NCBI RefSeq assembly: GCF_004010195.1
Contig: NC_057756.1
Coordinates: forward strand, 10,005,330-10,033,559
Origin: Chiloscyllium plagiosum
Lineage: Eukaryota
Direction: 5' to 3'
DNA: 28,230 nucleotides
The position numbers were made by a program, and so were the translations under genes. The notes beneath the pieces are model-generated. The model saw only the letters and a list, made by a program, of their open reading frames with translations. It had not been told where the DNA came from and did not search any database. Shown one piece after another: positions 1,985 to 26,710 of this stretch; positions within the stretch are counted from its first letter, which is position 1, and each line of letters opens with the position of its first letter.

Positions 1985-2440
1985 TCTCCATCCACCTGCA
2001 CCTTCCCTCTGACCTTTTACCTGCAATTGACTTGTTTATTGAGAATTGTCAATGTCATATCGGTCATCTGAATTTCTCTGCCCCCACCCCTCACCCATTG
2101 AAACCTAACTCCCTCTGAACTGAAGGGGCTCCATGCTCTCAGCTCCAAACATGGCTTTATCATCAAGCCTGCCCACAAGATTGATGCTGGTGTTGTCTGG
2201 CGGACTAATCTCTACATTGTTGAGGTCAGCACCAGCTCTCAGATACCATCTCCTATCTCCTCCTGGATATGACCCCACCATTCAGCATCAGGCAATTGTG
2301 TCCATCACCATCAGCAATCTCATCTCATCTCCCTTAGACAGCCTTGTAGCTCATAGTCCCCTCACCCTGTACAGTCTGCTTCTACTTTCTCCCCAGCTTC
2401 CATAATCAGGACTGTCCAGACAGACCCATTGTTTCTGCCT
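1985..2440 (+). mobile_element. Penelope-like element ORF fragment (N-terminal part of RT), decayed
   Basis: Frameshifted DLFIENC...IKPA(D)K..A.VVWRTxLY...DPTxQHQAIV...HNQDCPxRPIVSA, matching PLE IKPADKG and PKIHK..PGRPIVS motifs. Confidence 0.8.
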
Positions 2441-2733
2441 GAGGTGGGCACGACAGGGAGTGGAGTGTATTATTTCTCCCTCCAATTCTATTTTGATTTA
2501 ATCCCCCTTCACTGTTTGATCTCGCAGCATTACACTCTAAAAAGGGCACTGCTTGTCGTTGGCCACTTGGGTGTTTCTTTTCCTCCTGGTGATGGAAATT
2601 GAATAAAGATTTGTACACCTTGTGTCTTTCACTGTGTCCCATACCTGCACACACATGACAAGGATGCTGGGGAAAATACAAGCACTACCACAGTTCGGCG
2701 GTAGTGTGGGACAAAAAGAAAGAAAGAAAAAGA
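2441..2733 (+). mobile_element. Tx1/L1-clade LINE 3' end, copy A
   Basis: RWA.QGVECIISPSNSILI* (stop 2499-2501), AATAAA, terminal hairpin and A-rich tail; homologous to copies B-D. Confidence 0.7.
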
Positions 2734-2898
2734 ACAGGAGTGTCAGACATTCTGAAATAAAAACGAAAAAAAAACACATGACAAGGATGCTGGGGAAAAT
2801 ACAAGCACTACCACAGTTCGGCGGTAGTGTGGGACAAAAAAAAGAAAAAGAAAAAAGAACAGGAGTGTCAGACATTCTGAAATAAAAACGAAAAAAAA
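2651..2898 (+). repeat. Near-perfect ~123-bp tandem duplication of a Tx1 tail plus target motif
   Basis: acacatgacaaggatgctgg...cattctgaaataaaaacg starts at 2651 and 2774; differences lie in the A-tracts. Confidence 0.9.
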
Positions 2899-3272
2899 GT
2901 CAACGATTGTGTTTCACTCTGAGAGCTGACTCTGAGAGTGTTGGATCAGTGTGGAGAGAAGGACTCTGCTCTTTTTCCTGTGTTAAAAGAGGAGAGGAGA
3001 TTGATTCTGTTTTTGTCTTCCCATTGAGGAGGAAGAGTTTATTTCGAAGTTTTTTGTTTCTTCTTTATTGTTGTTGTGATTGTTTGTTTTCTGGCTTTTC
3101 TTTTTTGCTCACTTGAAGCTGTGCTCAACTGCACAGGCAGCTACTACCATCACTGCTGCTGCTACAAGCTTGGGCCTGCTCCGAATACTGGAGCCTGGAC
3201 CTTGCCTGCACCACTGTTGCTGCCCGGGCCTACCTACAAAATAAAATAAAATAAATAAATAAACAGGAGTGG

Positions 3273-3745
3273 TTCCTGTACAGAGAATGGTGGTCGGGGG
3301 TGTAGGTTAGAGGACCTTCTTCTGGGTGTGCTCCTGGGCCTGGCCATAAACAGGTCCAGGCAGCAGGCCATGGAGGGGCTCATCAGGGCTTGTTGCCTGC
3401 CCCTTTTCCGCAGCTACGTCCGAGCCCGGAGTTCACTGGAGGAGGAGCACGCGGTGTCTACCAACACCCTCGAGCTGTTCAGGGAGAGGTGGGCACTGCA
3501 GGGAGTGGAGTGTCTTATTTTCCCGTCTGACTCTATTTTGATTTAATCCCTGCCTTCCCCTTCACCTTTTTAATCACTCAATATTGCCCTTTGATGAGAA
3601 GGGTATTGCCTGTCACTGGCCACCCTGGTGTTTTCTTTCTTCCTGGTGGTGGGAATTGAATAAAGATTTGTCCATCTGTTGTCTCTCACTGTGTCTCACA
3701 CCTGCACACACAACATGGGTGCTGGGGAAAATACAAGCACAAACA
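3273..3745 (+). mobile_element. Tx1/L1-clade LINE 3' end, copy B
   Basis: ORF 3328-3546 LLGLAINRSRQQAMEG...CLPLFRSYVRAR.SLEEEHAVSTNTLELFRERWA resembles the Tx1 ORF2 C-terminus; followed by the 3' UTR. Confidence 0.75.
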
Positions 3746-3879
3746 AATATAACCAAGTGATTTAGAATCTCCTCAGTTAAGGGGACTGACCCTGTAAAAG
3801 AAAAAAATATTAACAGGTGATTTAGGATCTCCTTGGTTTAGCAGACTGACTCTGTAAAGAAAGAAATACCAGGAGTGTC

Positions 3880-4512
3880 CCTGGTGCGGAGGGGGAGGGT
3901 AGGTCAGAGGACCTCCTCGTGAGTCTGCTCCTGGGCCTGGCCAAACTGGCCATAAACAGGTTCAGGCAGCGGGCTGTGGAGGGGGTCATTAGGGCCAATT
4001 GCCTGCCCCTCTTCCGCGTTTATGTCAGAGCCCAGGTGTCCCTGGAGAAGGAACACGCAGTGTCCACCAACATCCTCGAGCTGTTCAGGGAGAGGTGAGC
4101 ACCACAAGGTGTGGAGTGTCTTATTTCCCCCTCCAACTATATTTTGATTTAATCCCTGCCCTCCTCTTCACTGTTTGATCACGCAGCATTGCCCTCTGAG
4201 AAGGGCACTGCTTGTCACTAGCCACTCAGGTGTTTCCTTTCTTCCTGGTGGTAAAATATAAATAAAGATTTCCAAACTTTTGATTTAATCCCTGCCCTCC
4301 TCTTCACTGTTTGATCACGCAGCATTGCCCTCTGAGAAGGGCACTGCTTGTCACTAGCCACTCAGGTGTTTCCTTTCTCCCTGTGGTAAAATATAAATAA
4401 AGATTTCCAAACTTGTTGTTCTTCACTGTGTCTGACACCTGCACACACATGACATGGGTGCTGGGGGAAAGTAAGTACTGCTGCTGTCAGGTGGTAGTGT
4501 GGGGGAGTGGGG
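3880..4512 (+). mobile_element. Tx1/L1-clade LINE 3' end, copy C, with probable TSD
   Basis: Same ORF2 C-terminus; flanked by aaataccaggagtgtc (3864-3879) and aaataaacaggagtgtc (4513-4529). Confidence 0.75.
4142..4413 (+). repeat. ~136-bp tandem duplication inside the Tx1 copy C 3' UTR
   Basis: ttttgatttaatccctgccctcc...aataaagatttccaaac at 4142 and 4278, almost identical. Confidence 0.9.
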
Positions 4513-4662
4513 AAATAAACAGGAGTGTCAGAGGTTCTGTTCATTCAGAGCTGGATCAATGAGTGAAGGACTCTCCACTTTTCTGTGTTAACGAGGAGAG
4601 GAAACTGGCTGACTGACTTCTGAACAGCCTGGATGAAAGAGAAAAATATAAACAGGAGTGTC

Positions 4663-5160
4663 CCCAGTGCAGAGGGGAGAAGGGTAGGTCAGAGGACCAC
4701 CTCGTGGGTCTTCTCCTGGGCCTGGCCATAAACAGGTCCAGGGCAGCGGGCCGTGGAGGGGGTCATTATAGCCTGCCCCTCGTCTGCGGCTACATCTGAG
4801 CCCGGGTGTCCCTGGAGAAGGTAGCACATGGTGTCCACAAACACCTTTAAGATTTTCAGGGAGAGATGGGCATCACGGGGAGTGAAGTGTCTTATTTCAC
4901 CCTCCAACTCTATTTTGATTAATCTCTGCCCTCTCCTTCACTTTTTGATCACGCAGCATTGCCCTTTGATGAGAAGGGCACTGCTTCTCACTGGCTACTC
5001 GGGTGTTTCCTTTTTTCCTGGTAGTGGAATATAAATAAAGATTTATGTTCTTGTTTTTCACTGTGTCCTATACCTGTACACATATGACATTGATGTTGGG
5101 GAAAAATAAGCAGAAAATAGCGTGGGGAGGGAAAGAAAAAAAAACGAGTCAGAGAAAAAG
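4663..5160 (+). mobile_element. Tx1/L1-clade LINE 3' end, copy D, with probable TSD
   Basis: VSTNTFKIFRERWASRGVKCLISPSNSILI; flanked by ataaacaggagtgtc (4648-4662) and ataaactggagtgtc (5163-5177). Confidence 0.75.
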
Positions 5161-5657
5161 AAATAAACTGGAGTGTCAGAGGTTCTGATCACTCTGAGAG
5201 CTGGCTGTGAGGGAGCTGGATCAGTGTCAAGGACTCTTAATTTGTGTCAGGGAGGACCACATCCTGTGTGTACTGCTCCTGTTGGTTTCTGTTTGTTTTT
5301 GGAGGAAACCTGATTCCTGAACTGGCCTGAATTATATCGTCAGTTTGTTAACTGTATTTCTTTTTATTGAGGACTGATTTTTAAACTGCCTGATCTACAC
5401 AGTCAATGTGTTTCAGATATAATTCAGTTCTCATTAGGGAACTGTTATTTCACTGGCTGGTTATAGGCTGTATGTTACTCTTTTACTTTGAGAAAAGGAC
5501 CATGCTGATTTTGTGGCAGGGCTTAGCCCTTGCATTCTGGTTTTCTTTTTTTTGAATGTGTTTTCACTCTTTTGGTGTTTGGACTGAACTGCTGTGAGAA
5601 AATATATCTTTCCAGATGAGCCGGCCCTCTATGGGTAGGCTTGGCCCTTCGTGAGTT

Positions 5658-5970
5658 ACCAGGCCTCTGTAAAGACTGAACACCTGTGTGTGTGCTGAGA
5701 GGTGAGCAATTGCATCCTGGAGTGGACCAACAACAGTGAGTTAACTGCACCTTTGCAATGTACTGTGTTCCTGTGAGTAAGCCTGGTCCTTTGTGGATGG
5801 ACCAGGCCTCTGTGGAGACTGAACACCTGCATGTGTGGTGTGGACCAAACCCCTGAGAGTTAACTGCACCTTCACAATGTACTGTGTTCCTGTGAGTAGG
5901 CCTGGATCTCTAAAGATAAACCAGGCCCTATGGAGACTGAATACCTGTGTGTGTGCTGCAGGGTGTGCAT
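5658..5970 (+). repeat. Tandem repeat, ~2.3 units of 119-143 bp
   Basis: accaggcc....gactgaa.acctg recurs at 5658, 5801 and 5920; gagttaactgcacctt..caatgtactgtgttcctgtgagta occurs twice. Confidence 0.85.
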
Positions 5971-7294: not shown

Positions 7295-7354
7295 ATTGCT
7301 TTAGCTAAACCTAGCATGAACATTTACGTCACTTGACTGAACTGTTTGAGTGGG

Positions 7355-7470
7355 CGAAAGTGAGTACTGCAGATGCTGGAGATCAGAGTCAAGAGTGTGA
7401 TGCTGGAAAAGCACAGCAGGTCAGGCAGCATCCGAGGAGCAGGAAAATCAATGTTTCGGGCAAAAGCCCA
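7355..7470 (-). mobile_element. Penelope-like terminal repeat, truncated within the hammerhead
   Basis: Reverse complement of the 1850-1966 family; keeps gggcttttgcccgaaac but lacks CTGANGA. Confidence 0.75.
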
Positions 7471-10533: not shown

Positions 10534-11088
10534 TTACAACGTGATCTTGATCAGATGGGCCAATGGGCTGAGAAGTGGCAGATGGGATTTAGATAAATGC
10601 AAGGTGCTACATTTTGGGAAAACAAATCCTAACAGGACTTCAACCTTAATGATAAGGCCCTAGGGAGTGTTGCTAAACAAAGAGACCTTGGAGTGCAGGT
10701 TCATAGCTCCGTGAAAATGGAGTCGCAGGTAGATAGGATAGTGAAGAAGGCGTTTGGTATACTTTCCCATATTGGTCAGTGTATTGAGTACAGGAGTCCA
10801 GAACTAGAGGGCATAGGTTTAGGGTGAGAGGGGAAAGATATAAAAGAGACATAAGGGGCAACTTTTTCACGCAAATGGGTGGTACATGTATGGAATGAGC
10901 TGCCAGAGGAAGTGGTGGAGGCTGGGACAATTGCAACATTTAAAAGGCATTTGGATGGGTATATGAATAGGAAGGGTTTGGAGGGATGTGGACCGGGTGC
11001 TTGCAGGTGGGACCGGATTGGGTTGGGATATCTGGTCGGCATGGACACGTTGGACCGAAGGGTCTGTTTCTGTTCTGTACATCTCAAT
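10534..11088 (+). mobile_element. CR1 3' fragment inserted in the SINE, internally deleted
   Basis: LQRDLDQMGQWAEKWQM...QRDLGVQVH...WNELPEEVVEAGTIATFKRHLDGYMNRKGLEG. Confidence 0.9.
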
Positions 11089-11335
11089 GACTGTGTGTGG
11101 AGTTTGTATGTTCTCCCCGTATCTGTGTGGGTTTCCTCCCACAGTCCAAGAATGTGCATGTTAGGTGGATTGGCCATGCTAAATTGCCCAAAGTGACCAG
11201 AAAGGTGTAGGTTAGGTGAATTATCCATGAGAAATGCAGGGATAAGGTGGGCGATGTCAGGGTGGGATGCTCTTGGGAGAGTCGATGAGAACTTGCTGGG
11301 CCGAATGGCCTGTATCCACACTGTAAGGATTCTGT
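11089..11335 (+). mobile_element. HE1-type SINE body and 3' tail
   Basis: gtgtggagtttg...cccacagtccaa...ttaggtggattggccatgctaaattgccc...ggccgaatggcctgtatccacactgt. Confidence 0.85.
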
Positions 11336-11799: not shown

Positions 11800-11900
11800 C
11801 CTTACTTCTGAGGAAGGGTCATTGGACCTGAAACGTTAACTCTGATTTCTCTTCAGATGCTGCCAGACCTGCTGTGCTTTTCCCCCAATATCTGTGTAAT
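11800..11900 (+). mobile_element. Penelope-like terminal repeat with hammerhead motif
   Basis: CTGAGGA(11808-11814)-A-GGGTC attg GACCT-GAAAC-GTT, then gatgctgccagacctgctg. Confidence 0.7.
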
Positions 11901-12509: not shown

Positions 12510-13385
12510 GGTCATTTCCTGGTTGGAAGACACAAGTGGTGTGCCACAGGGATCAGAGCTGGGTCTTCAACTCTTTACAACGCAGATGAATTCACTGAAT
12601 GAAGGGAATGCAGGTTTAGTTGCAAAGTTTGATGACACATAGATAGATATGAAGTCATTTTTTAGGAGGGAGCAACGAAGCTACAAGATAATACTGATAG
12701 GTTATGAGAATGACCAAAGATCTGGTCTTGTGGGAAGATATAAATGTGACCATTTCGGCAGAAGAATAAAAATCATCTTGCCTCAATGATGAGAAATTGA
12801 AATGACCTGAGATGCAGAGGAATCTAGATGTCCAAGTAGTTGTATCACAAAAGGTTAGTGAATAAACACAGCTAGTTGTTGGGAAACCAGAAAATGTTGT
12901 TTTTATTGCATTTTATGAGGGGAATTGAATACAGAAGTAGAAAATTGATGCTTCAGTTACACAGAACATTGAGGCATACCTGGTGTACTGTGCACTGTAT
13001 TGCTTTTCCTATTTATGGATAGATGTAAATGCATTGGCGGAGTTCAGAGAAGAGTTATAAGATGAGTACGGCTGGGTGGGTTGCCTTCCGAGGAAGGGCT
13101 GAACAGGTTAGACTTGTATATGTTGGAGTGTAAAAGACTACAGGTGGCGTGATTGAAACATACAGGAACCTGAGGGGTCTTGACAAAGCAGATGTGGAGA
13201 GGATGTTTCATCTTATGGGAGACTGTAGAATTAGGGCTCACTATTTAAAAATCATGGGTCACTCATTTATGACAGAGATAGAGAAGTGATCAGAATTGTG
13301 AGTCTTTGGAACACTAAAAGGTGCTGGAAGCAAGATCATAGCAAATGATATAAAGGTGGACTGTAAAAATGTCTCTACGTATGTG
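12510..13385 (+). mobile_element. Old CR1 RT/C-terminal fragment
   Basis: SGVPQGS.LG, VAKF.DD and LQLYR.L..LxYC remnants with many stops and indels. Confidence 0.8.
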
Positions 13386-13479
13386 TAAGGGAAAATATTA
13401 ACAAGATGAAATATGAGTCGATTGCAGGCAGAAATAGAAAAGTTTTTCATGAAGAATTCCGAAATGGAGCAACTAAACC

Positions 13480-14453
13480 GTTATATTGTCTATTTTCATG
13501 GACAAAGGTACAGAAAATCTCCCAGAAATAATAAGAAACCAAGGGACTTCTAAAAATTAGATAACGAAATTACTATCAATGTTGAAGAACATGGAAATAA
13601 AGATAATGGATGCAATGGTGGTGATCTTTCAAAATTCTATAGATCCTGGAAAAGTTCCTGCAGACTTGAAAACAGGAAAGATAACCCAATTACGTTCGAA
13701 AGGAGAGGAAGACTAGAGATTAAGATTTATTAGTTTGATATCAACAGGGAAGAATTTATTTTAAGAATGGGATAATTAGGCACTTACAAAACAATGATAT
13801 GATTCAACAATGGATTTATGAAATGGAATTCATGTTTGATCCAAAGATGTGCATGGTTAGGTGAATTGGCTATGCTAAATTATCCATAGTGTTTAGGGAT
13901 GGGTTGGTTAGGTGCATGAGGCGGGTAAATGTAGAATAATAGGGTAGGGGAATGGATCTGGGTGGGTTAATCTTCAGAGTGCCATTATGGGTTTATTGGG
14001 CTGAATGGCCTGTTTCCACAGTGTAGGGATTCTATGGTAAATATGCTTGAGTTTTTGAATATGTTGCTTACAGCACAGATAAAGGAGAACGAATGGATGT
14101 GATGTATTTAGTTTTTCAAAGTTTTATGGATAGGAAGTTAGTAAATAAAATTAAAGTGCACAGGACTTCAGGTAATATATTGGCATGGATTGATAATTGG
14201 TGAACAGACAGAAAATAGAGAACAGATCATTCTTAGAATGACAAGCTGTTAAGAATGGGAGACAATAAAGATCAGTGCTTGGACCCTATTCACAATTTAT
14301 AAAAATAATTTGATGGTGAGTACTAAATATAATGCTGCAAAATTTGCTGATAACACAAAGTTTGGTGGAGATATGAGAAACAAGGGAGATACAAAGAGTC
14401 TTCAAGCGGATTTGGAAAGGCTACATGAAAGTGCAAGAGCATGGCCAATGGAG
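13480..14453 (+). mobile_element. Old host CR1, part 1 (continues at 15556-15758 and 19671-20118)
   Basis: IFQNS.D.GKVPAD.K...QxGF....SCL/LEF...DVMYL.F...KFADNTK...WPME remnants. Confidence 0.8.
13840..14036 (+). mobile_element. HE1-type SINE, 5'-truncated, inside the host CR1
   Basis: tccaaagatgtgca.gttaggtgaattggc...gggctgaatggcctgtttccacagtgtagggattctatg; the host reads SCL|insert|xNMLEF. Confidence 0.85.
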
Positions 14454-15540
14454 TTTTTTTTTTAAATTCATTCATGGGATGTTGGCATTGCTGATTGGCC
14501 AGCATTTATTGCCAGTCCCTGGCTGCCTTTGGGAAGGTGGTGGTGGTTGTTTCCTGCCTTCTTAAACTGCTGCAGTCTATGTGTTGTAGGTAAACCTATA
14601 ATGCTGTTGGGGGCGGGGGGGCGCATGGATTCCAGGATTTTGACCCAGCAACAGTAAAGGAAAAGCAATGTATTTCCAAGTCAGGATGACGAGTGGTGAG
14701 GAACTTGCAAGTGATAGAGTTCCCATGTTTCTGCTGCCAGTGTCCTTCTAAGTGGAAGTTGTGGCATGGCATACGGTGTGTTAGGTTTTATTTGTAGAGG
14801 GTTTGAGTTCCGGAGCTATAATGTCATGCTGCAACTATAGAAAATGCAAGTGCGGCCTCACTTGGAGTATTGTGTGTCAATCTGGTCGCCCCATTACAGG
14901 AAGGATGTGGACGCATTGGAAAAGGTGCAGAGGAGATTTACCAGGATGTTGCCTAGTCTGGAGCGAAGGTCGTATGAGGAAAAGTTGAGGGACTTGAGTC
15001 TGTTCTCATTGGAGAGACAAATGCTAAAATGGGATTTACTAGAAACATACAAGATGATCTGAGGATTAGAAAGGATGGAAGTGAAAGTTTTTTTCCTAGG
15101 ATGATGACATCTGCTTGTATGAGAGGGGATAGCTGCAAATTGAGGGGTGATACATTTAAGACAGATGTCAGAGGCAGGTTCTTTACTCAGAGAGTTTTAA
15201 GGGCGTGGAATGGCCTGCCTGCCAATGTAGTTAATTCAGCCACATAAGGAGCATTTAAACAGTCCTTGGATAAGCACATGGATGATGATGGGAATGTGTA
15301 GGGGGATGGGCTTAGATTAGTTCACAGGTCGGTGCAGCATCAATGGCCAAAAGGCCTTTTCTGCACTGTATTGGTTCTATGTTTTATGTTTGGGAAGGTG
15401 CTGTCTGAGGATCTTTGCTGAAATTCAGCAGTGTAGATGGTACACACTGCTGCTACTGAAAGTCAGTGGTGAAGTGAGTGGATGTTTGTGAAAGTGGTGC
15501 CAATCAAGGGGCTGATTTATCCTGGATGGTGTCACTACCC
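14454..15540 (-). mobile_element. Second-family LINE 3' part, split by a CR1 at 14768-15388
   Basis: T-tract at 14454; minus strand PNSIIGLPTTHRLQQFKKA...HHHL.KG; resumes at ~15389. Confidence 0.75.
14768..15388 (+). mobile_element. CR1 3' fragment
   Basis: VRPHLEYCVSIWSPHYRKDVDALEKVQRRFTRMLP...FFTQRVLRAWNGLP and a ttctatg tail. Confidence 0.92.
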
Positions 15541-15555
15541 TGAGGAATTCCTGTT

Positions 15556-15758
15556 GATATAATGTGAATAGTTTCAAAATTATTCACCTTGGTAGTTCGA
15601 AAATAAATGTATTTTTTTTAATTGGGGAAAGGCTGGAAATCATGGGTGTCTGGAAGGATTTGGATCTACTTGTCCTTTAATCATGAAAAATTGGCATAAA
15701 GACGCAGCAAGCAAATATCAAGGCAAAGCACATGTTGGCCTCCATCATAATGGGACTT
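15556..15758 (+). mobile_element. Old host CR1, part 2
   Basis: YNV...IIHLG...KDL..LV...KAKHMLASIIMGL, cut at the 20-bp duplicated site. Confidence 0.75.
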
Positions 15759-15860
15759 CACAACTGGGAGACACACCGATGAACCAGAGGCCATGTTAGA
15801 TCTTCTTACCACACATCCCACTTTGATGAGATCTGTCTGGCACGTCTCAGTTTTGGATAA

Positions 15861-16408
15861 AGTCATCGAGATGTACAGCACGGAAACAGACCCTTTGGTC
15901 CAACTTATCCAAGCTGACCAGATAGCCTAACAAAATCTAGTCCGACTTGCCAGCATCCGGCCCATATCCCTCCAAACCCTTCCTATTCATATACCCAATC
16001 ACATGCCTCTTAAATGTTGCAATTGTACTAGCCTCCACCACTTCCTCTGGCAGCTCATTCCATACACGTACCACCCTCTGTGTGAAAAAGTTGTCCCTTA
16101 GGTCTCTTTCATATCTTTCCCCTCTCACCCTAAACCGACGCCGTCTAGTTCTGGATTCCCCGATCCCAGGGAAAAGACCTTGTCTATTTACCCAATCCAT
16201 GCCCATCATGATTTTATAAACCTCTATAAGGTCACCCCTCAGCCTGCGACGCTCCAGGGAAAACAGCCCCAGCCTATTCAGCCTCTCCCTGTAGCTCAAA
16301 CCCTCCAACCCTTGCAAACATCCTTGTAAATCTTTTCTGAACCCTTTCAAGTTTCACAACATTTTTCCGATAGGAAGGAGACCAGAATTGCATGCAGTAT
16401 TCCAACAG
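15861..16408 (-). mobile_element. Young CR1 3' fragment
   Basis: ORF 16350-15937 GLEGLSYRERLNRLGLFSLERRRLRGDLIEVYKIM...FFTQRVVRVWNELP. Confidence 0.93.
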
Positions 16409-17549
16409 TAGCAGCTACAATATTTGCATTTGTTTGACTACCTGAAGAAACGAATATATGTTCTCATTTTCATATATATGTAATATATACATGTATGTAC
16501 ATATATGCAGCCCTCAAGAGAGAGAGAGAGAAAAGATGTTTAGTATTTTCTATAATAATGGCATTTATTATTTATCTTTCCAGAACGTTAATTTGAAAGG
16601 ACCTAAGCAATCTCCTTCAGTAGACATTATACACCTGTATCTCACCTGACCTCTTCAATGTCAATGCAGAAGCAATGGTCAAAGAAGTGTTTGAAGACAC
16701 AATATCTGCCATTAATATTGGGAGCAGGAGTGGCAAAGAAAACTATCACTTAGATTTTCACATGAGAAAGCGTTGTCCACAAGCACAGAAGGGGATTTAC
16801 AAGAACTGACAGATAGACCAGTAACACCAGGCATGAAATGTGGAATGAAAATTAACATTGGCAAACTAAAGTGATGAAAATCTCAAAATTACAAATAAAT
16901 ATTCATATTAACAGAAGGAAGAGTACTTAGTCTTTAGGAAGCATATCTCTGGGTGGAAGGTGCATCAAAGAATGAGAACAGCGTGGCAGTGGCGATGGCC
17001 ATATCATGGAAGACGAATCTGAATACAGAACTCAAACAGTGAGGTGGTCCATTTATTGGTAATTTTGAGATTTTCATCACTTTAGTTTGGCCAATGTTTA
17101 TTTTCATTCCATAGATCATGGAACGAGTCCATGTTCAAACACTTCTTTGACCATTGCTTCTGCATTGACATTGAAGAGGCCAGGTGATATACAGGTGTAT
17201 AATGTCTACTGAAGGAGATTGCTGAGATCCTTTCAAATTAGCGTTCTAGAAAGATAAATAATAAATGCCATTATTATAGAAAATACTAAACACCTCTCTG
17301 TCTCTCCACATATATATATGTAGATAGAGAGAGAGAGGTGTTTAGTATTTTCTATAATAATGACATTCATTATTTATCTTTCCAGAACGTTATATGCAGC
17401 TCTCTCTCTCTATATATATATATACATATAATATATATATATAGAGAGAGAGGGCTACATATATGCATGTATATATTATATGTACATGAAATTGGGAACA
17501 TTTATTCATTTGTTTAGGGGTGACACAAATGCAAATATTGTAGCTGCTA
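16409..17549. repeat. ~1.14-kb foldback inverted repeat (arms ~16409-16900 and ~17051-17549)
   Basis: Perfect 25-bp terminal match (16409-16433 vs 17525-17549) with extensive internal complementarity. Confidence 0.9.
16560..17050 (+). mobile_element. RTE-clade LINE RT fragment, decayed
   Basis: SPDLFNVNAEAMVKE...INIG...LRF...DLQEL.DR....GMKCGMKINIG..KVMKISK resembles RTE RT motifs. Confidence 0.6.
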
Positions 17550-17573
17550 TCCATTGTTCCTTCACTGAGTGGA

Positions 17574-17673
17574 AAAATCACACAACACCAGGTTATAGTC
17601 CAACAGGTTTAATTGGAAGCACACGAGCTTCCAATTAAACCTGTTGGACTATAACCTGGTGTTGTGTGATTTT
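17574..17673. repeat. Perfect 47-bp-stem hairpin, probably PLE-derived miniature element
   Basis: 17574-17620 is the exact reverse complement of 17627-17673; loop acacga. Confidence 0.85.
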
Positions 17674-18156
17674 AAACAGATTTATAACGGTTACTTCAAA
17701 TAAAACAAAAACTGTCGTGTACTCAAACAGCATAAAATAAAGACCAATACATTGTGGTCAGTGTTCCCAAAATGTCCTTTCCAGCAATATTTCCAATTAG
17801 CTCTTCTGATCACTCAACACCAATTCCAAAATAACGTGATCTCGAGCTCAGTGCTCGACATAATGTTAATGCAAACCATCTCACACGTGCTCATGAAATC
17901 CATTTTTCCCAGCATGAGCATTCAATTGGGTTAACACAGTTTAGATTTAATTTAAACAGTACATTATTACTGCAGTGCCCACAAATGTGTACATCTCATT
18001 TCCTGTTTTTTAACCTGCCCAGCATTTGTATTGCAGCTTTCACTTTGATATATAAATCCCATCAATGTTTGCTCCTCCTTGTTGTTTTTGCGCTCCACCT
18101 TACTAGATTCTGTAGAATCTGAGCGATGTGGGCTCTAGGAAGATTAATGGTAGAGA

Positions 18157-18217
18157 TCATCTCACAACATCATTTATGGTCTTCTCAAACTTGAATTTCT
18201 CCAGATCTCCCGTTATG
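18157..18217 (-). other. Candidate orphan terminal coding exon (xITGDLEKFKFEKTINDVVR*)
   Basis: Acceptor tacttctctactccatcAG (18219-18218), 19 codons, TGA, then ~480 bp of apparently unique UTR-like sequence; protein not recognised. Confidence 0.3.
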
Positions 18218-18314
18218 CTGATGGAGTAGAGAAGTACAATAATCTTCCAACAATGCTCTGTATTCCCCCAGAGAGCTGAGACTGCTCTAACCTGGGTGGG
18301 AACCTTACAACAGG

Positions 18315-18555
18315 CTGGTAAAGTGTTGTTGCTGCTGTACAGGATCTTAGTGAAATCACATCTGGAGTAGTGTGTACAGATTTAATCTCTTCAATGAAGA
18401 AAGGATGTTGTTGTATTGGAAGCAGCTCAGTGATGGTTCACTCAGCTGATTCCTGCAATGAAGGTGCGAGCTTATAACGAAAGGATGATCAGGTTGACCC
18501 AATAGCCATTGGAGTTTACAAAAATTAAAGAGTGTCCTATTTCAACATAGATGAC
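18315..18555 (+). mobile_element. Old CR1 fragment
   Basis: LLLYRILVKSHLE*CVQ...KDVVVLEAAQ..FTQLIP. Confidence 0.8.
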
Positions 18556-18589
18556 AGAAGGAATCAACAAGTGAAGCAAATTACGCAGA

Positions 18590-19310
18590 TAGTGGAGGAA
18601 TCCATTCCGTTCTCCAGCCTGTTACAGAGGAACAACAGAAGGATATTCAGGCCGTCGAGCCTGTTACACCAAAACAGGACGAGTCTATTCAGCCCTTGGT
18701 GCCTGATATACATTTACAGAAGGAGGCCAATCAGTCCCCGAGCCGATAACACTGGATCCAGAATAGGCCATGCTGCACCAGTATCCTGTTACACAGCAAC
18801 AGGATCAGTTCAGACAGCCACCTCAAGTCTGTAACATAGGAACTGGATGCGGTAACACATTGACTGGAGATTGTTACACTGGGATAACAGGAGGCCATTC
18901 AGACCCACCGAGCCTATTTCAAGGGAGTTGGATAAGGATAAAAACTATCTGACACTTCTTTCATATCTGTTATATGGGAACAAGAGAAGACCAATCACTC
19001 CCTCGGTCCCATCTCTGGGATTCATGTGGAGACCGTTCAGTATCTCCACCTGTTATGTGGAAGTATGAGAAGACCCATCAGCACCTCAAAATGTTACACA
19101 GCAACAGGAGGATTGCATAATCCCCCAACCCTCTAAGGCATCAACGGGAGAAGGTCATTCTGGCTTTGGAGACATCAGCATAGGAACACCAGAAAGACGT
19201 CAGCCCATCGAGATTGTACACCAGCAGGATGATGAGTCCAGTCAGTCACACATGCCTCAAACAGCAATTGGAGCAGATCTCTTAAAACCTTCTGCCCATT
19301 AAACAGGAAT
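18590..19310 (+). repeat. Degenerate ~42-bp satellite, roughly 17 units
   Basis: ctgttaca-like anchor at 18619, 18661, 18703, 18744, 18786, 18829, 18871; approximate unit acaggaggaggccattcagcccctcgagcctgttacac. Confidence 0.85.
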
Positions 19311-19492
19311 TAAAAAAAAAGTAAAGGTTTTCAAAAGGGAAGAAATTATAATAACCGTATACATTTGGGAGTAAAACGTAATGAAAAACTATTGTAATTT
19401 AAGACAATTCTTCGAATCCATAGTTGAGGACATTTGCAAAGTTAAACCACAATCCATGGGAGTCAACATGGTTTTACAAAGGAAAAATCAAG

Positions 19493-19670
19493 AGCGCAGC
19501 AGGTCAGGCAGCATCGAGGGAACGGGAGAATCGACGTTTCGGGCATTAGCCCTTCTTCAGGAATCCCGAAACGTCGATTCTCCTGTTCCCTAGATGCTGC
19601 CTGACCTGCTGCGCTTTTCCAGCAACACATTTCCATCTCTGATCTCCAGCATCTGCAGACCTCACTTTCT
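19493..19670. mobile_element. Inverted pair of PLE terminal repeats
   Basis: 19493-19543 pairs with 19565-19615; the plus copy runs to ctcactttct at 19670. Confidence 0.85.
19531..19564 (-). ncRNA. Minimal hammerhead ribozyme motif
   Basis: Minus strand attc-CTGAAGA-A-GGGC taat GCCC-GAAAC-GTC-ga. Confidence 0.7.
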
Positions 19671-20118
19671 CCTCCATCATAATGGGACTTGAGTAAAGGA
19701 GTAAGGGTGAATTGCTGTAATTGAATAGGGCCTATGTTAGATTGTGTACAGCTTTGGTTTCCTAACCTAAGGAAGGATGTTATTCTTATGAGGGAATGCA
19801 ATGGAGGTTCACCTGATTAATCCCTGGCTGGTGGGATTGTTTTGTGAGGGATTGAGGAAACTGGGTCTGTTGACTTTAGGATATTGATGAACAAGAAGTG
19901 GTCTCATTGAAACTTATAAAATTCTTGCAGACCGATGACTTCTAACCACTGAGTCTAAGTTAACAATAGATATCAATCTCATTTCTCAATGGCGTTGAAG
20001 GTTACATGAATTGTACGGAAAAGTGACTAATAATCAACCATGAACTTTTTGAATTTTGGAACAAATGTCAATGGGTGAAATGACCTACTCCCTGATCCTG
20101 ATTCCAACGTATCTATGT
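19671..20118 (+). mobile_element. Old host CR1, part 3 (3' end)
   Basis: E*RSK.ELL.L.RA.VR...VQLW.P.LRKDV...FTxLIP...LIETYKIL and a CR1-type tail. Confidence 0.8.
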
Positions 20119-20184
20119 ACTTTAAGTGTACATGCAGCTGTGTGCAAAAGCACTGATGTATAGTGATGTCTGATCACATGGACA

Positions 20185-20290
20185 GTAAGGATTGCAGATG
20201 CTGGAAGTCAGAGTCGATAGATGTGAAGGTGGAAGAGCACAGTGGGTCAGATAGCATCCAAGGAGCAGGACAGTCAGTGTTTCAGGCCAA
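20185..20290 (-). mobile_element. Degenerate PLE terminal repeat
   Basis: tgcagatgctgga...agcacag...gtcag..agcatcc.aggagcagga, homologous to 7355-7470. Confidence 0.65.
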
Positions 20291-20654
20291 ATTTCAGCCA
20301 CAATAAAATACCCTCACAATATAATTTTACTTTGTGGAAGTCATGGACCAGGACAATCAATATTGGAGAATGGACACCGGGCACATGGGCTGCATTAACT
20401 GTTTTGTCAGACACCCTTATATTGGCTGAGGAAGATTACTTTACAATCTTTATCCTTCCAAAAGTACAGGCTAGGACTAATCAACCTCACTGTGAAAGGC
20501 TAGCTTCGGAGAACATTATGACACAAAATAAACAAATTATTAAAATACTGTATGTTGTCTGTAACTGCTATATTGCCTACTTAACAGGGGAAGCTGCACA
20601 TTTCTCAATATGTGCTTAAGACACACATGGTCTCCTTTACAAACACAGACTGTG

Positions 20655-21840
20655 TGATCTGCCTGTAGAAATGACCCTGATCCCCACTTTGCTTGCCATT
20701 TCAATAAACTACTTGGTCTTATGCTAGCATTTCTATCCTGGGCCTGCTGCTATGTTCCAATAAACACAACACAAGCTCAAGGAACCACACCTCTCTTTCT
20801 GCTTAGGCACTTTATAGCCTTGAGGTCTCAGTATTGAATGCAATAGCTTCAGAAACAGATTGCAAGATGCCTGTTCTTCATTGTGTTTTACATCCTCCCC
20901 CATCCACGTCCCTCCTACATTTGTGTCTTGTTTACTTTACACTTAGTGAAAATGACCACTTCTTTCCCTTTCACACCTTAATTTACATCCTTTTTCATCT
21001 TTCTTTCTTTTCTCCACTGTGAGAAACGAAGCTCACTGTTCAATAATTTCAGTCCGAGTCAAATTCTGAAGCAGTCTTTATTCATACGGTCTTGCAAGTC
21101 CGGGTGGCCACAATGTAGTCACACCCGATCAGGGGGTTACATTACAATTTATACAGTTCAGTTGAGTCTCTCAGTACTCCCCTTTTACCTCATACATGGT
21201 AGTTGTATTACTCTGCAATTGCTAATCTAATCAATTTACCACATCAGTCTATGGCCTGTTGTTGGTGTGTAACCACCCCCCTTGATAGCTGAGTCTTATT
21301 ACTTTTGCTGATGCAACACTGGGTCTTATTTGGTTATCTTGTCCATACTAACTCCCTATGTGCATGACAATTGCAACTGTCATGTCAATACATCTGTTTC
21401 TACCAGTCGACCATCTCCCTTTACAGTTTGTTATTTCTTGCGATTTTTGCAGAAGCAAGATACAGCTACTTGTAACTCTTTGTGCAAGCATATCTAGCTT
21501 AATATATACCACCTCCCTCCCCCCCCCCCATGACTTAGCCTTGTGTTTTTTTCAGAAACAACAAACTTCACAAGCGCTTCTCACATCCACTAACAACAAC
21601 TCCTTTGTCCATTGCATTGGCCTCTATGCCATCTTCCATCTTGCTCCCTCTCTGCCTCTATCAAAAGTATAAAAAAGTACTTATTTTCCAACACCTCACA
21701 GTTCTGAAGAAGAGGCATAACAGACTAAAAACATTTACTCTGTTTATTTATCCACATACTGCCAGACCAGCTGAGTTTCTCCAGCAATTTGTTTTTTGTA
21801 TTTTTCCAATACAGCAGCCACAGTTCTTTGTTTTATTGAT
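20655..21840 (+). mobile_element. Penelope-like element 3' part (GIY-YIG C-terminus and UTR), split by a solo LTR
   Basis: SILGLL.CS.....KLKEPHL.F.LGTL.P.GL.IE remnant at ~20730-20850; terminus with ctgaaga at 21704. Confidence 0.75.
21018..21585 (-). mobile_element. 568-bp solo LTR with 5-bp TSD
   Basis: TGTGAGAA...TTCTCACA inverted termini; TSD tccac at 21013-21017 and 21586-21590; minus-strand TATAAA 21153-21148 and AATAAA 21082-21077. Confidence 0.85.
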
Positions 21841-22975: not shown

Positions 22976-25395
22976 GGTATGGCAATTATCATGGAGGATT
23001 TTAATCTACATGTTGATTGGTCAAACCAGCTCAGTCAGGATAGCCTTAAGGAGGAGTTTGTTGAGAGTATTCGTGATAGTTTTCTTGAACAGTATGTAAT
23101 GGAATTGACAAGGGTTCAAGTTATCCTAGATCTGGTCCTGTGTAATGAGACAGGAAAAGCTAATGACCTCATAGTTCGGGATCCTCTTGGAAGGAGTGAT
23201 CACAGTATGGTTGAATTTAGAATACAGATGGAGAATGTAAAGATAAAATCCAACACCAGGGTCCTGTGCTTAAATAGGGGAGGCCACAATAGGATGAGGG
23301 AGGACTTGGCTAAAGTTGACTGGAAACCAAGAATTTATGGTGGGACAGTTGACAAACAATGGAGGGCTTTCAAAGCGCTCAACAAAAGTATATTTCAGTG
23401 AAAAGAAAGCACTGTAGGAAAAGGGGTAATCTGCCTTGGTATCTCAGGAAATAAGGGAGGTTATCAAATTGAAAAAGAAGGCATTCAAAGTGGCCAAGAT
23501 TAGCAGGAAACTAGGAGATTGGGAAAGCTTTAAAGGTCAACAGAAAGCCACAAAAAGAGTGATAAAGAAAACACAGAACAGAGAAAGAACTAGCACAATA
23601 TAAAGACATACAGCATAGATTTTTATAAATATATAGAACAAAAAAAAGTGGCTAAAGTAAACATTGGCCCTTTTGAGGATGAGAGAGGAGCATTTAGTTA
23701 TGGGATATGGTGAAATGGCCAAGGTATTGAATAGGTATTTTGTGTCAATCTTCACAGTGGAGTACATGAATAAAATGACATAATTGACAAAGAGACAAAG
23801 GTTGGTGAGGACCTGGAAACGATCATTATGATAGAAGAGGTAGTGTTGGGCAAGCTAATAGAGCTAAGGATAGACAGGTTTCCTGGCCCTGATGGATTGC
23901 ATCCCAGGGCACTAAGAGATGGTGGGAGAAATAGTAAGTGCATTTGTGGTAATTTTCTAAAATTCACTGGTCTCTGAGGCAGATCCAGCAAATGTGATGC
24001 CATTGTTTAAAAAGGGAGGTAGACAAAAGACGGAGAATTATAGACTGGTTAGCTTAACTTCTATAGTAGGGAAGATGCTTGAGTCTATTATCAAGGAAGA
24101 GATAGCAAGGCATCTAGCTAGACATAGTTGGGCAGACGCAGCATGGGTTCATGAAGGGCAGGTCATGATTAACTAATCTTTTGAAATTCTATGAAGACAT
24201 TACGAGCATGGTGGACAACGGGGACCCAATAGATTTGGTGTACCTAGATTTTCAAAAAGCCTTTGACAAGGTGCCATACAAGAGGCTGCTGTGTAAGACA
24301 AAGATACATGATGTTACAGGTAAAGTATTAGCATGGATCGAGGATTAGTTAACCAACAGGAAGCAAAGTGTGGGGATAAATGAGTGCTATTCTGGTTGGC
24401 AATCAGTAGCTAGTGGTGTGCCTCAGGAATCAGTATTGGACAATTATTCACACTTTACATAGATGATTTGGAGTTGAGGACCACGTGTAGTGTGTCAAAG
24501 TTTGCAGATGACACTAAGATGAGTGGCAGAGCAAAGTGTGCAGGGGATTGTGAAACTTTGCAGAGGAACATAGATATTTTTGAGTGGGTAAAGGTCTGAC
24601 AGATGGAATACAATGTTAATGTATATGAAGTTATCCACTTTGGTAGGAGTAATAGTAAAAACAGTATTATTTGAATGGTAAATAAGTTGCAGTATGCTGT
24701 AATGCAGAAGGATCCAGGTGTCCTTGCACATGAATCATGAAATGTTGGTCTGCAGGTACAACAGGTAATTAGGAAGGCAAATTGAATTTTGTCCTTCATT
24801 ACTAAAGGGATTGAGTTTAAAAGCAGGGAGGTTATATTGCAGTTGTACAGGGTGCTGGTGAGGCTACACCTGGAGTACTGTGTGCAGTTTTGGTCTCCTT
24901 ACTTGAGAGAGGATGTACCTGGCACTGGAGGGGGTGCAAAGGAGGTTCACTAGGTTGATTCTGGAGTTCAGGGGGTTGGCTTATGAGGAGAGACTGTGGA
25001 CTGGGATTATATTCATTGGAATTTAGAAGAGTGAAACATATACAGAAACATATAAAATTATAAAAGGAATGGAGAAGCTAGACAGAGAGAGGATGTTCCC
25101 ACTGATGGGTGACAGCAGGACAAGAGGGCAGAGCCTCCATATTAGGGGGAACAGTTTTAGGACTGAATTGAGAAGGAACGTCTTCACCCAGAGGGTTGTG
25201 AACCTGTGGAATTCCCTGCCCAGCTAAATGGTTTTTAAAGCTAAGAAAGATTTTTTTGAACAATTAAGGGATACGCTGAGAGGGCGGGTGAGTGGAACTG
25301 AGGCCACGAAAAGAACAGCCATGATCTTATTGAAGTGCAGAGCAGGCTCAGATGGCCTACTCCTGCTCTTATGATGTTCTAATGTTCTTATGATG
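22976..25395 (+). mobile_element. CR1 LINE, 2.4-kb 5'-truncated dead copy (EN C-terminus, RT, tail)
   Basis: DFNLHVDW...ILDLVLCN...LGRSDH; PGPDGLHP; NYRLVSLTS; YLDFQKAFDKVP (24241); [22 protein letters not shown]; stops and frameshifts. Confidence 0.95.
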
Positions 25396-26529: not shown

Positions 26530-26710
26530 AGAGACAAAATACTGTAAATGCTGGAAATCTGCAACAAACATAGCAAAGCAGGTCTGTCTGAGAAACAGTT
26601 TGATTCTGGTATGACTGTTCTTCAGAACTCTTCTGAAGAAGAGTCAAACTGTCCTTGAGTATTTAATGTTTCTCCCTCTGTGGATGCTGCCAGACCCGCT
26701 GAGTTTCTCT
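26530..26710. mobile_element. Old inverted pair of PLE termini
   Basis: ttcttcagaa ctc ttctgaagaa centre (26618-26640) flanked by degenerate PLE terminal sequence on both strands. Confidence 0.65.

Follow-up and report, generated by a model that had tools for sequence, protein, structure and literature searches.

A 3.9-kb insertion in a dead LINE of Chiloscyllium plagiosum, with a likely Penelope-type end at one duplication boundary

How two identical copies of a 20-base word came to lie 3.9 kb apart within one decayed long interspersed nuclear element (LINE), with the end of a likely Penelope-type retroelement exactly at the right-hand copy, is the question raised by a 28,230-nucleotide stretch of Chiloscyllium plagiosum DNA (the window; all coordinates are window positions). 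A first-pass annotation of this DNA had proposed Penelope-mediated capture of genomic cargo. We found that the 3,912 bases between the two copies are a single insertion into a dead LINE at one duplicated target site, and judging from the sequence this insertion is likely a one-sided vertebrate variant of a process already published for rotifers (PMC3846280).

A single insertion into a dead LINE

Exact copies of the 20-mer stand at 15739-15758 and at 19671-19690, with no further identity on either side. Under a second-order Markov model of the window, 8e-8 exact chance matches are expected for 20 bases and 4e-6 for the 17-base core downstream of the element end; a chance origin of the match is excluded, and the word is a true duplication, as had been claimed. 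Exact copies of a 17-mer at least 100 bases upstream are found for 48 of the 22,114 start positions from 6101 on, forming eight runs, seven of which fall in a fold-back, a satellite or element copies, the remaining one being the boundary duplication. Of the 10 element ends scanned, only this one is followed directly by sequence that has an exact long copy starting at the end itself; an element end near 21800 has a 17-base match to its 3' flank when one mismatch is allowed, in T-rich sequence. A further element-end copy, at 7353-7469, has an 8-base word common to both flanks, slightly out of register, which is possibly a decayed duplication.

Excising the interval restores one decayed LINE, as the first-pass annotation had stated. 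With the interval removed, the flanks align across the junction to a second LINE copy at 24608-25065 (61% over 463 columns, E 5.8e-23), which has RVT_1 and Exo_endo_phos_2 Pfam matches and in which the 20-mer corresponds to 24793-24812 and the next base to 24813, with neither gap nor overlap. The join of the flanks scores best at offset 0 (130, versus 76-129 for the nine other offsets tried), and the two flanks have diverged about equally from the reference copy (129/195 versus 176/242 positions identical, Fisher p 0.14). We take the host LINE to belong to the CR1 clade, a name that we assume and that comes from no database match. The host relic seems to extend leftwards over 13340-15758, split by at least two nested repeats (~13840-14030 and 14458-15535; by eye).

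Of the 3,912 inserted bases, 3,731 lie to the left of a two-armed element stub. The identity of this stub to a sister copy runs through its final CCT, which is also host sequence, so that the duplication comprises 17 bases plus a 3-base overlap, an overlap that had been foreseen. A separate duplication around the element alone, which the first-pass annotation had named as the sign of a later independent insertion, was looked for and not found: the longest word common to the two local flanks of the stub has 6 bases and is out of register.

The element end and the sequence beside it

The direct, long arm of the stub (19565-19673) is 91% identical to 1859-1967, final CCT included. All four long copies of this element family in the window end 57-60 bases past a shared anchor motif, that is, within 4 bases of one another, which indicates that the right end is a true terminus and bears out the retroelement terminus proposed for this boundary. 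The inverted arm (19490-19563), correctly described beforehand as a hammerhead-bearing partial copy, shares 51 of 54 positions with the direct arm and carries on its minus strand a complete minimal hammerhead core, CUGAAGA-stem II-GAAA-C-GUC. A pattern scan of the window, with a descriptor taken from PMC4209133, found this minimal core at 19560 (minus), 1842 and 11808. The direct arm starts inside stem II, and the full core is present in the inverted arm only. Rfam gave no hammerhead match at E up to 1 and the fold is no more stable than shuffled sequence (z -0.3), both of which are unsurprising for the minimal hammerhead form (PMC4209133). The description of the element as a tiny non-autonomous ribozyme-bearing Penelope-like element is therefore right as to the core and overstated otherwise, since what is present is a terminal stub with a full core in one arm, and ribozyme cleavage is not required for insertion by an anole element in vitro (PMC11167929).

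The inverted arm is also the shorter one, ending 5 bases past the anchor motif, a difference of ~55 bases between long and short ends. Two modules of a related family end near the same point, one at 26709 (+6) and one at 11883 (+7 by eye, +12 to +14 by alignment), and the remaining two continue to +27 to +45. The first of these is itself part of an older unit (26531-26709), in which hammerhead-type modules of the related family stand head to head, one end being long and the other short. Directly past the sister terminus, 1967-2390 is decayed and coding-like, with a motif that we take to resemble the start of a Penelope reverse transcriptase; it has no database match. The element end itself had no matches in the viral, metagenome and prokaryote contig collections scanned. 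We consider the stub likely to be a Penelope-type end on the basis of its architecture rather than of an open reading frame (ORF).

The cargo to the left of the stub was said to be ~3.7 kb of DNA older than or unrelated to its target and to include a fold-back, a satellite and LINE relics, and this description holds (Table 1). The fold-back arms differ at 19 of 284 aligned positions, and the LINE relic, whose match region is 18329-18529, is 63% identical to its nearest copy. The left boundary of the insert is without element sequence. We assume an RTE affiliation for the fold-back relic from its motifs, although it has no Pfam match, and take the second hairpin, likewise without a database match, to resemble a stub with two ends from a different Penelope-type family; two donor pieces may be joined at it. 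This hairpin and the young LINE fragment had been missed or left unlisted in the first-pass annotation. Neither the young LINE fragment nor the RTE-like relic has its 3' end at either boundary, and both were rejected as drivers of the insertion. The young LINE was also considered as a clean insertion into the fold-back arm, and this was rejected too, the join of its flanks giving no gain over random sequence (its score was equalled or exceeded by all 5000 null scores). Small hairpins nested within the fold-back at 17239-17463 are centred on AT/AG microsatellites and suggest repeated local template switching.

Table 1. Features of the interrupted LINE and of the insertion, from left to right
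Feature	Position	Strand	Evidence
Left part of interrupted host LINE relic	15557..15758	+	aligns to 24608-24810, 129/195 identical
Left copy of 20-base duplication	15739..15758	+	exact match; maps to 24793-24812 of reference LINE copy
96 bases at left end of insert, no element terminus	15759..15854	.	no match to reference LINE, window flanks or window element copies
Young LINE 3' fragment, 554 bases	15855..16408	-	87.7% over 300 bases to 10793-11092; 138-codon open frame
Fold-back left arm, decayed LINE-like relic	16409..17050	+	no Pfam match
Fold-back right arm, inverted, internally rearranged	17051..17573	-	mismatches to left arm 7/162, 5/69, 7/53
Second hairpin	17574..17673	.	47/47 identical arms, 6-base loop; no flanking duplication found
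AT-rich, 616 bases, holds exon candidate	17674..18289	.	no homologue found
Old LINE relic, copy different from host LINE	18290..18565	+	63% to 24837-25036, E 4e-16; 68% over 71 bases to right flank
Degenerate satellite, period ~42	18566..19300	.	best lags 42, 83, 125; below Tandem Repeats Finder threshold
AT-rich, 189 bases, possibly another LINE relic (weak)	19301..19489	+	motif; no significant tblastx match
Inverted short arm with complete minimal hammerhead core	19490..19563	-	pattern scan, arm alignment
Direct long arm to recurrent terminus, last 3 bases common to duplication	19565..19673	+	91% to 1859-1967
Right copy of 20-base duplication	19671..19690	+	exact match
Right part of interrupted host LINE relic	19691..19921	+	aligns to 24788-25065, 176/242 identical

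The further proposal of an exon candidate in the cargo, and of exon dispersal by this copy, found no support, as no frame or candidate tested had a homologue in libraries that are weak for short shark exons, shark protein coverage being poor and the candidates short. The six frames of 17670-18330 and the minus-strand candidates (18217-18157, and 18134 onward) gave two sub-threshold Pfam matches only (E 0.03-0.04), none in the protein database at E up to 10, nothing better than E 0.07 in the PDB (two queries) and none in the Atlas. One frame looked STING-like by eye, which was dropped for want of a Pfam match. Elsewhere in the window, an array of a long terminal repeat (LTR)-like or split-repeat element at 2400-5200 consists of four to five diverged units in tandem, each ~600-1050 bases long; it has an AATAAA motif and, within it, exact duplications of 123 and 136 bases. 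The region 5630-5960 holds three diverged repeats spaced 118-143 bases apart.

Routes by which the insertion may have formed

The element terminus stands exactly at one boundary of the duplication, which argues for target-primed copying begun at that terminus. Our preferred reading, held tentatively, is that Penelope-type enzymes acting in trans copied a read-through RNA from a donor locus in which the two-armed stub was already resident. A GIY-YIG endonuclease would have nicked both strands of the target with a stagger of 17-20 bases, and reverse transcription would have started at the long terminus, probably aided by the common CCT, as the biochemistry of the anole element leads one to expect (PMC11167929). 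The template would have been an unspliced plus-strand transcript in the order cargo, inverted arm, direct arm, from which the enzyme would have copied the 184-base stub and then a further 3.73 kb, the product being joined at the left nick without element sequence there. Such a process would amount to 5' transduction with the terminal stub as its sole cis-acting handle. The short arm stops where two related modules also stop, while long copies run to +57 to +60, which points to a second end of natural origin, not a chance break, and suggests that, before its re-use, the stub had been inserted at the donor locus in the ordinary way, with two ends. Penelope-like insertions typically carry a tail at just one end (PMC8557442), terminal repeats alone were enough to move a 4-kb gene in Adineta vaga (PMC3846280; PMC6431247), and the fold-back and the LINE relic look older than the duplication.

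Several observations weigh against read-through copying. There is no ORF in the stub, and the frames beside the sister copy (1861-2112 and 2102-2269) have no Pfam or homology link to a Penelope ORF; a missing ORF is expected of a terminal stub, but the family assignment stays architectural. Four cargo pieces treated as unique were searched for in the rest of the window, and none has a donor there. The argument for a natural short end draws on three modules from two families, which is thin evidence, and the end difference of ~55 bases exceeds the published tail of 30-40 bases (PMC8557442). On the plus strand the hairpin mismatches are G.T in 6 cases and A.C in 8 (p 0.79); with G.T not in excess, there is no sign of editing on a double-stranded RNA template. 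The apparent age gap between the duplication (0/20 mismatches) and the two main fold-back arms (12/231) is not significant (Fisher p 0.61).

Ranked close behind read-through copying, and in our view unlikely though well within consideration, is template switching in a single event, whereby priming at the long terminus was followed by a fold-back that made the inverted arm and by a jump to an unrelated RNA or nearby single-stranded DNA, of which 3.7 kb was copied; the cargo may then be two pieces joined at the second hairpin. The exact duplication and seamless LINE join serve this route as well as the preferred one, and a short shared T-rich word at the arm-cargo junction, a second hairpin without flanking duplication and the template jumps proposed for A. 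vaga elements (PMC3846280) are all in keeping with it. However, the switch point would have to coincide by chance with the end of two other modules, no source is present within 15.7 kb upstream or 8.5 kb downstream, and the arms differ at 3/54 positions versus 0/20 for the duplication, a difference that is not significant. We regard as improbable a third route at the DNA level, in which 3.9 kb copied from a donor chromosome mended a staggered break, perhaps a cut by the Penelope endonuclease, and the element end merely offered microhomology for landing or acted as second substrate for a dimeric enzyme bridging two loci. An unspliced, repeat-rich cargo with long hairpins is more easily copied from DNA, the hairpins bear no editing trace and the right junction has 3 bases of microhomology, but a breakpoint exactly at a terminus that recurs in 4/4 long copies within 4 bases is not expected from ordinary repair.

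Serial accretion, in which the duplication arose with a small insertion and the gap then grew to 3.9 kb through further ones, appears very unlikely. In its favour, the young LINE fragment and the perfect 47-base hairpin may have come in afterwards, and the duplication is too short to date (p 0.61). Against it, ~2.4 kb of the insert consists of the LINE relic (63%), the decayed satellite and the diverged fold-back, none of which could have arrived by itself after a duplication that is still perfect, and no flanking duplication was found for any of these three. Last, and scarcely credible to us, is the reading that two separate LINE copies lie here by chance or that the assembly is in error. Old LINE copies here are 60-73% alike, so that 20/20 identity together with truncation of both at the same site would be very unlikely. 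Sequencing runs of the same organism from three studies hold 0.21-0.62 of the sampled words of 14500-21000 (half or more in two studies, 0.21-0.41 in the third), a measure that leaves the junctions themselves outside; shares of 0.16-0.18 in two other organisms are no evidence; young repeats alone make up ~13% of the stretch. The first-pass proposal that a Penelope element primed the insertion and then template-switched to, or transduced, unspliced sequence thus stands as regards a single insertion with the terminus at its boundary; of its two routes we tentatively prefer 5' transduction.

Implications and relation to known systems

In the literature searched, mostly outside subscription journals, we found no report of Penelope-mediated transduction in a vertebrate. 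If confirmed, the insertion would show that the copying of host DNA by Penelope elements, published for rotifers, also takes place in a vertebrate, with a single end-stub sufficient, and would widen the pool of movable sequence; it would also provide a simple genome-wide signature, namely a stub end with a distant duplication of its 3' flank. A broader proposition, which we put forward as unlikely on present evidence, is that any Penelope end-stub in this genome can act as a one-sided handle by which Penelope enzymes copy several kb of upstream unspliced DNA to new sites, and that stubs of two families can stitch separate pieces into one insert. Were it true, stub-rich vertebrate genomes would hold a general, unannotated source of dispersed duplications that resemble DNA-level segmental duplications. 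The present product is probably a non-coding duplication of old repeats with no function implied and a biological effect of nil, its value being that of a mechanistic fossil.

The closest known system is that of A. vaga, in which an intron-containing NRPS gene and some non-coding sequences were captured between Penelope terminal repeats, with target duplications and an observed empty allele (Arkhipova et al., 2013, PMC3846280), the captured cargo being given as 4 kb (PMC6431247). As in those captures, non-coding ones included (PMC3846280), ~4 kb of probably unspliced DNA was moved, with only terminal-repeat sequence in cis and one target duplication around element and cargo. The host is a rotifer there and a vertebrate here, the A. 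vaga cargo lies between terminal repeats whereas here both arms are at the right end with the cargo outside the pair and no element sequence at the left, the duplication has 8 bases versus 17-20 here, and the empty allele was seen there whereas ours is reconstructed from LINE homology alone.

The geometry of the present insertion matches SVA-type 5' transduction, although, unlike L1 and SVA insertions, it has no poly(A) tail and its terminus is a hammerhead-bearing module. With L1 3' transduction (PMC6431247) it shares the placement of flanking genomic DNA inside one target duplication. Like the non-LTR retrozymes (bioRxiv 10.64898/2026.07.22.740005), it is non-coding, hammerhead-bearing and related to Penelope terminal repeats; those are tandem head-to-tail monomers, in contrast to the single head-to-head stub found here, with no tandem array.

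Endonuclease-bearing Penelope-like units (Penelope/Poseidon and Neptune; PMC8557442, PMC11167929, PMC4209133) resemble the stub in having a truncated, inverted copy that faces a direct end head to head and a one-ended extension, as well as a minimal type I hammerhead core in the terminal repeat (PMC4209133). Canonical units differ in their ORF with a telomerase-like reverse transcriptase and a GIY-YIG endonuclease, in a duplication that flanks the unit instead of lying 3.7 kb away, and in an end difference of 30-40 rather than ~55 bases. The distance from the start of hammerhead stem II to the terminus is 115-118 bases in the sister copy (1842-1967), which matches the reverse-transcription start of the anole Poseidon element at 111-118 bases (PMC11167929).

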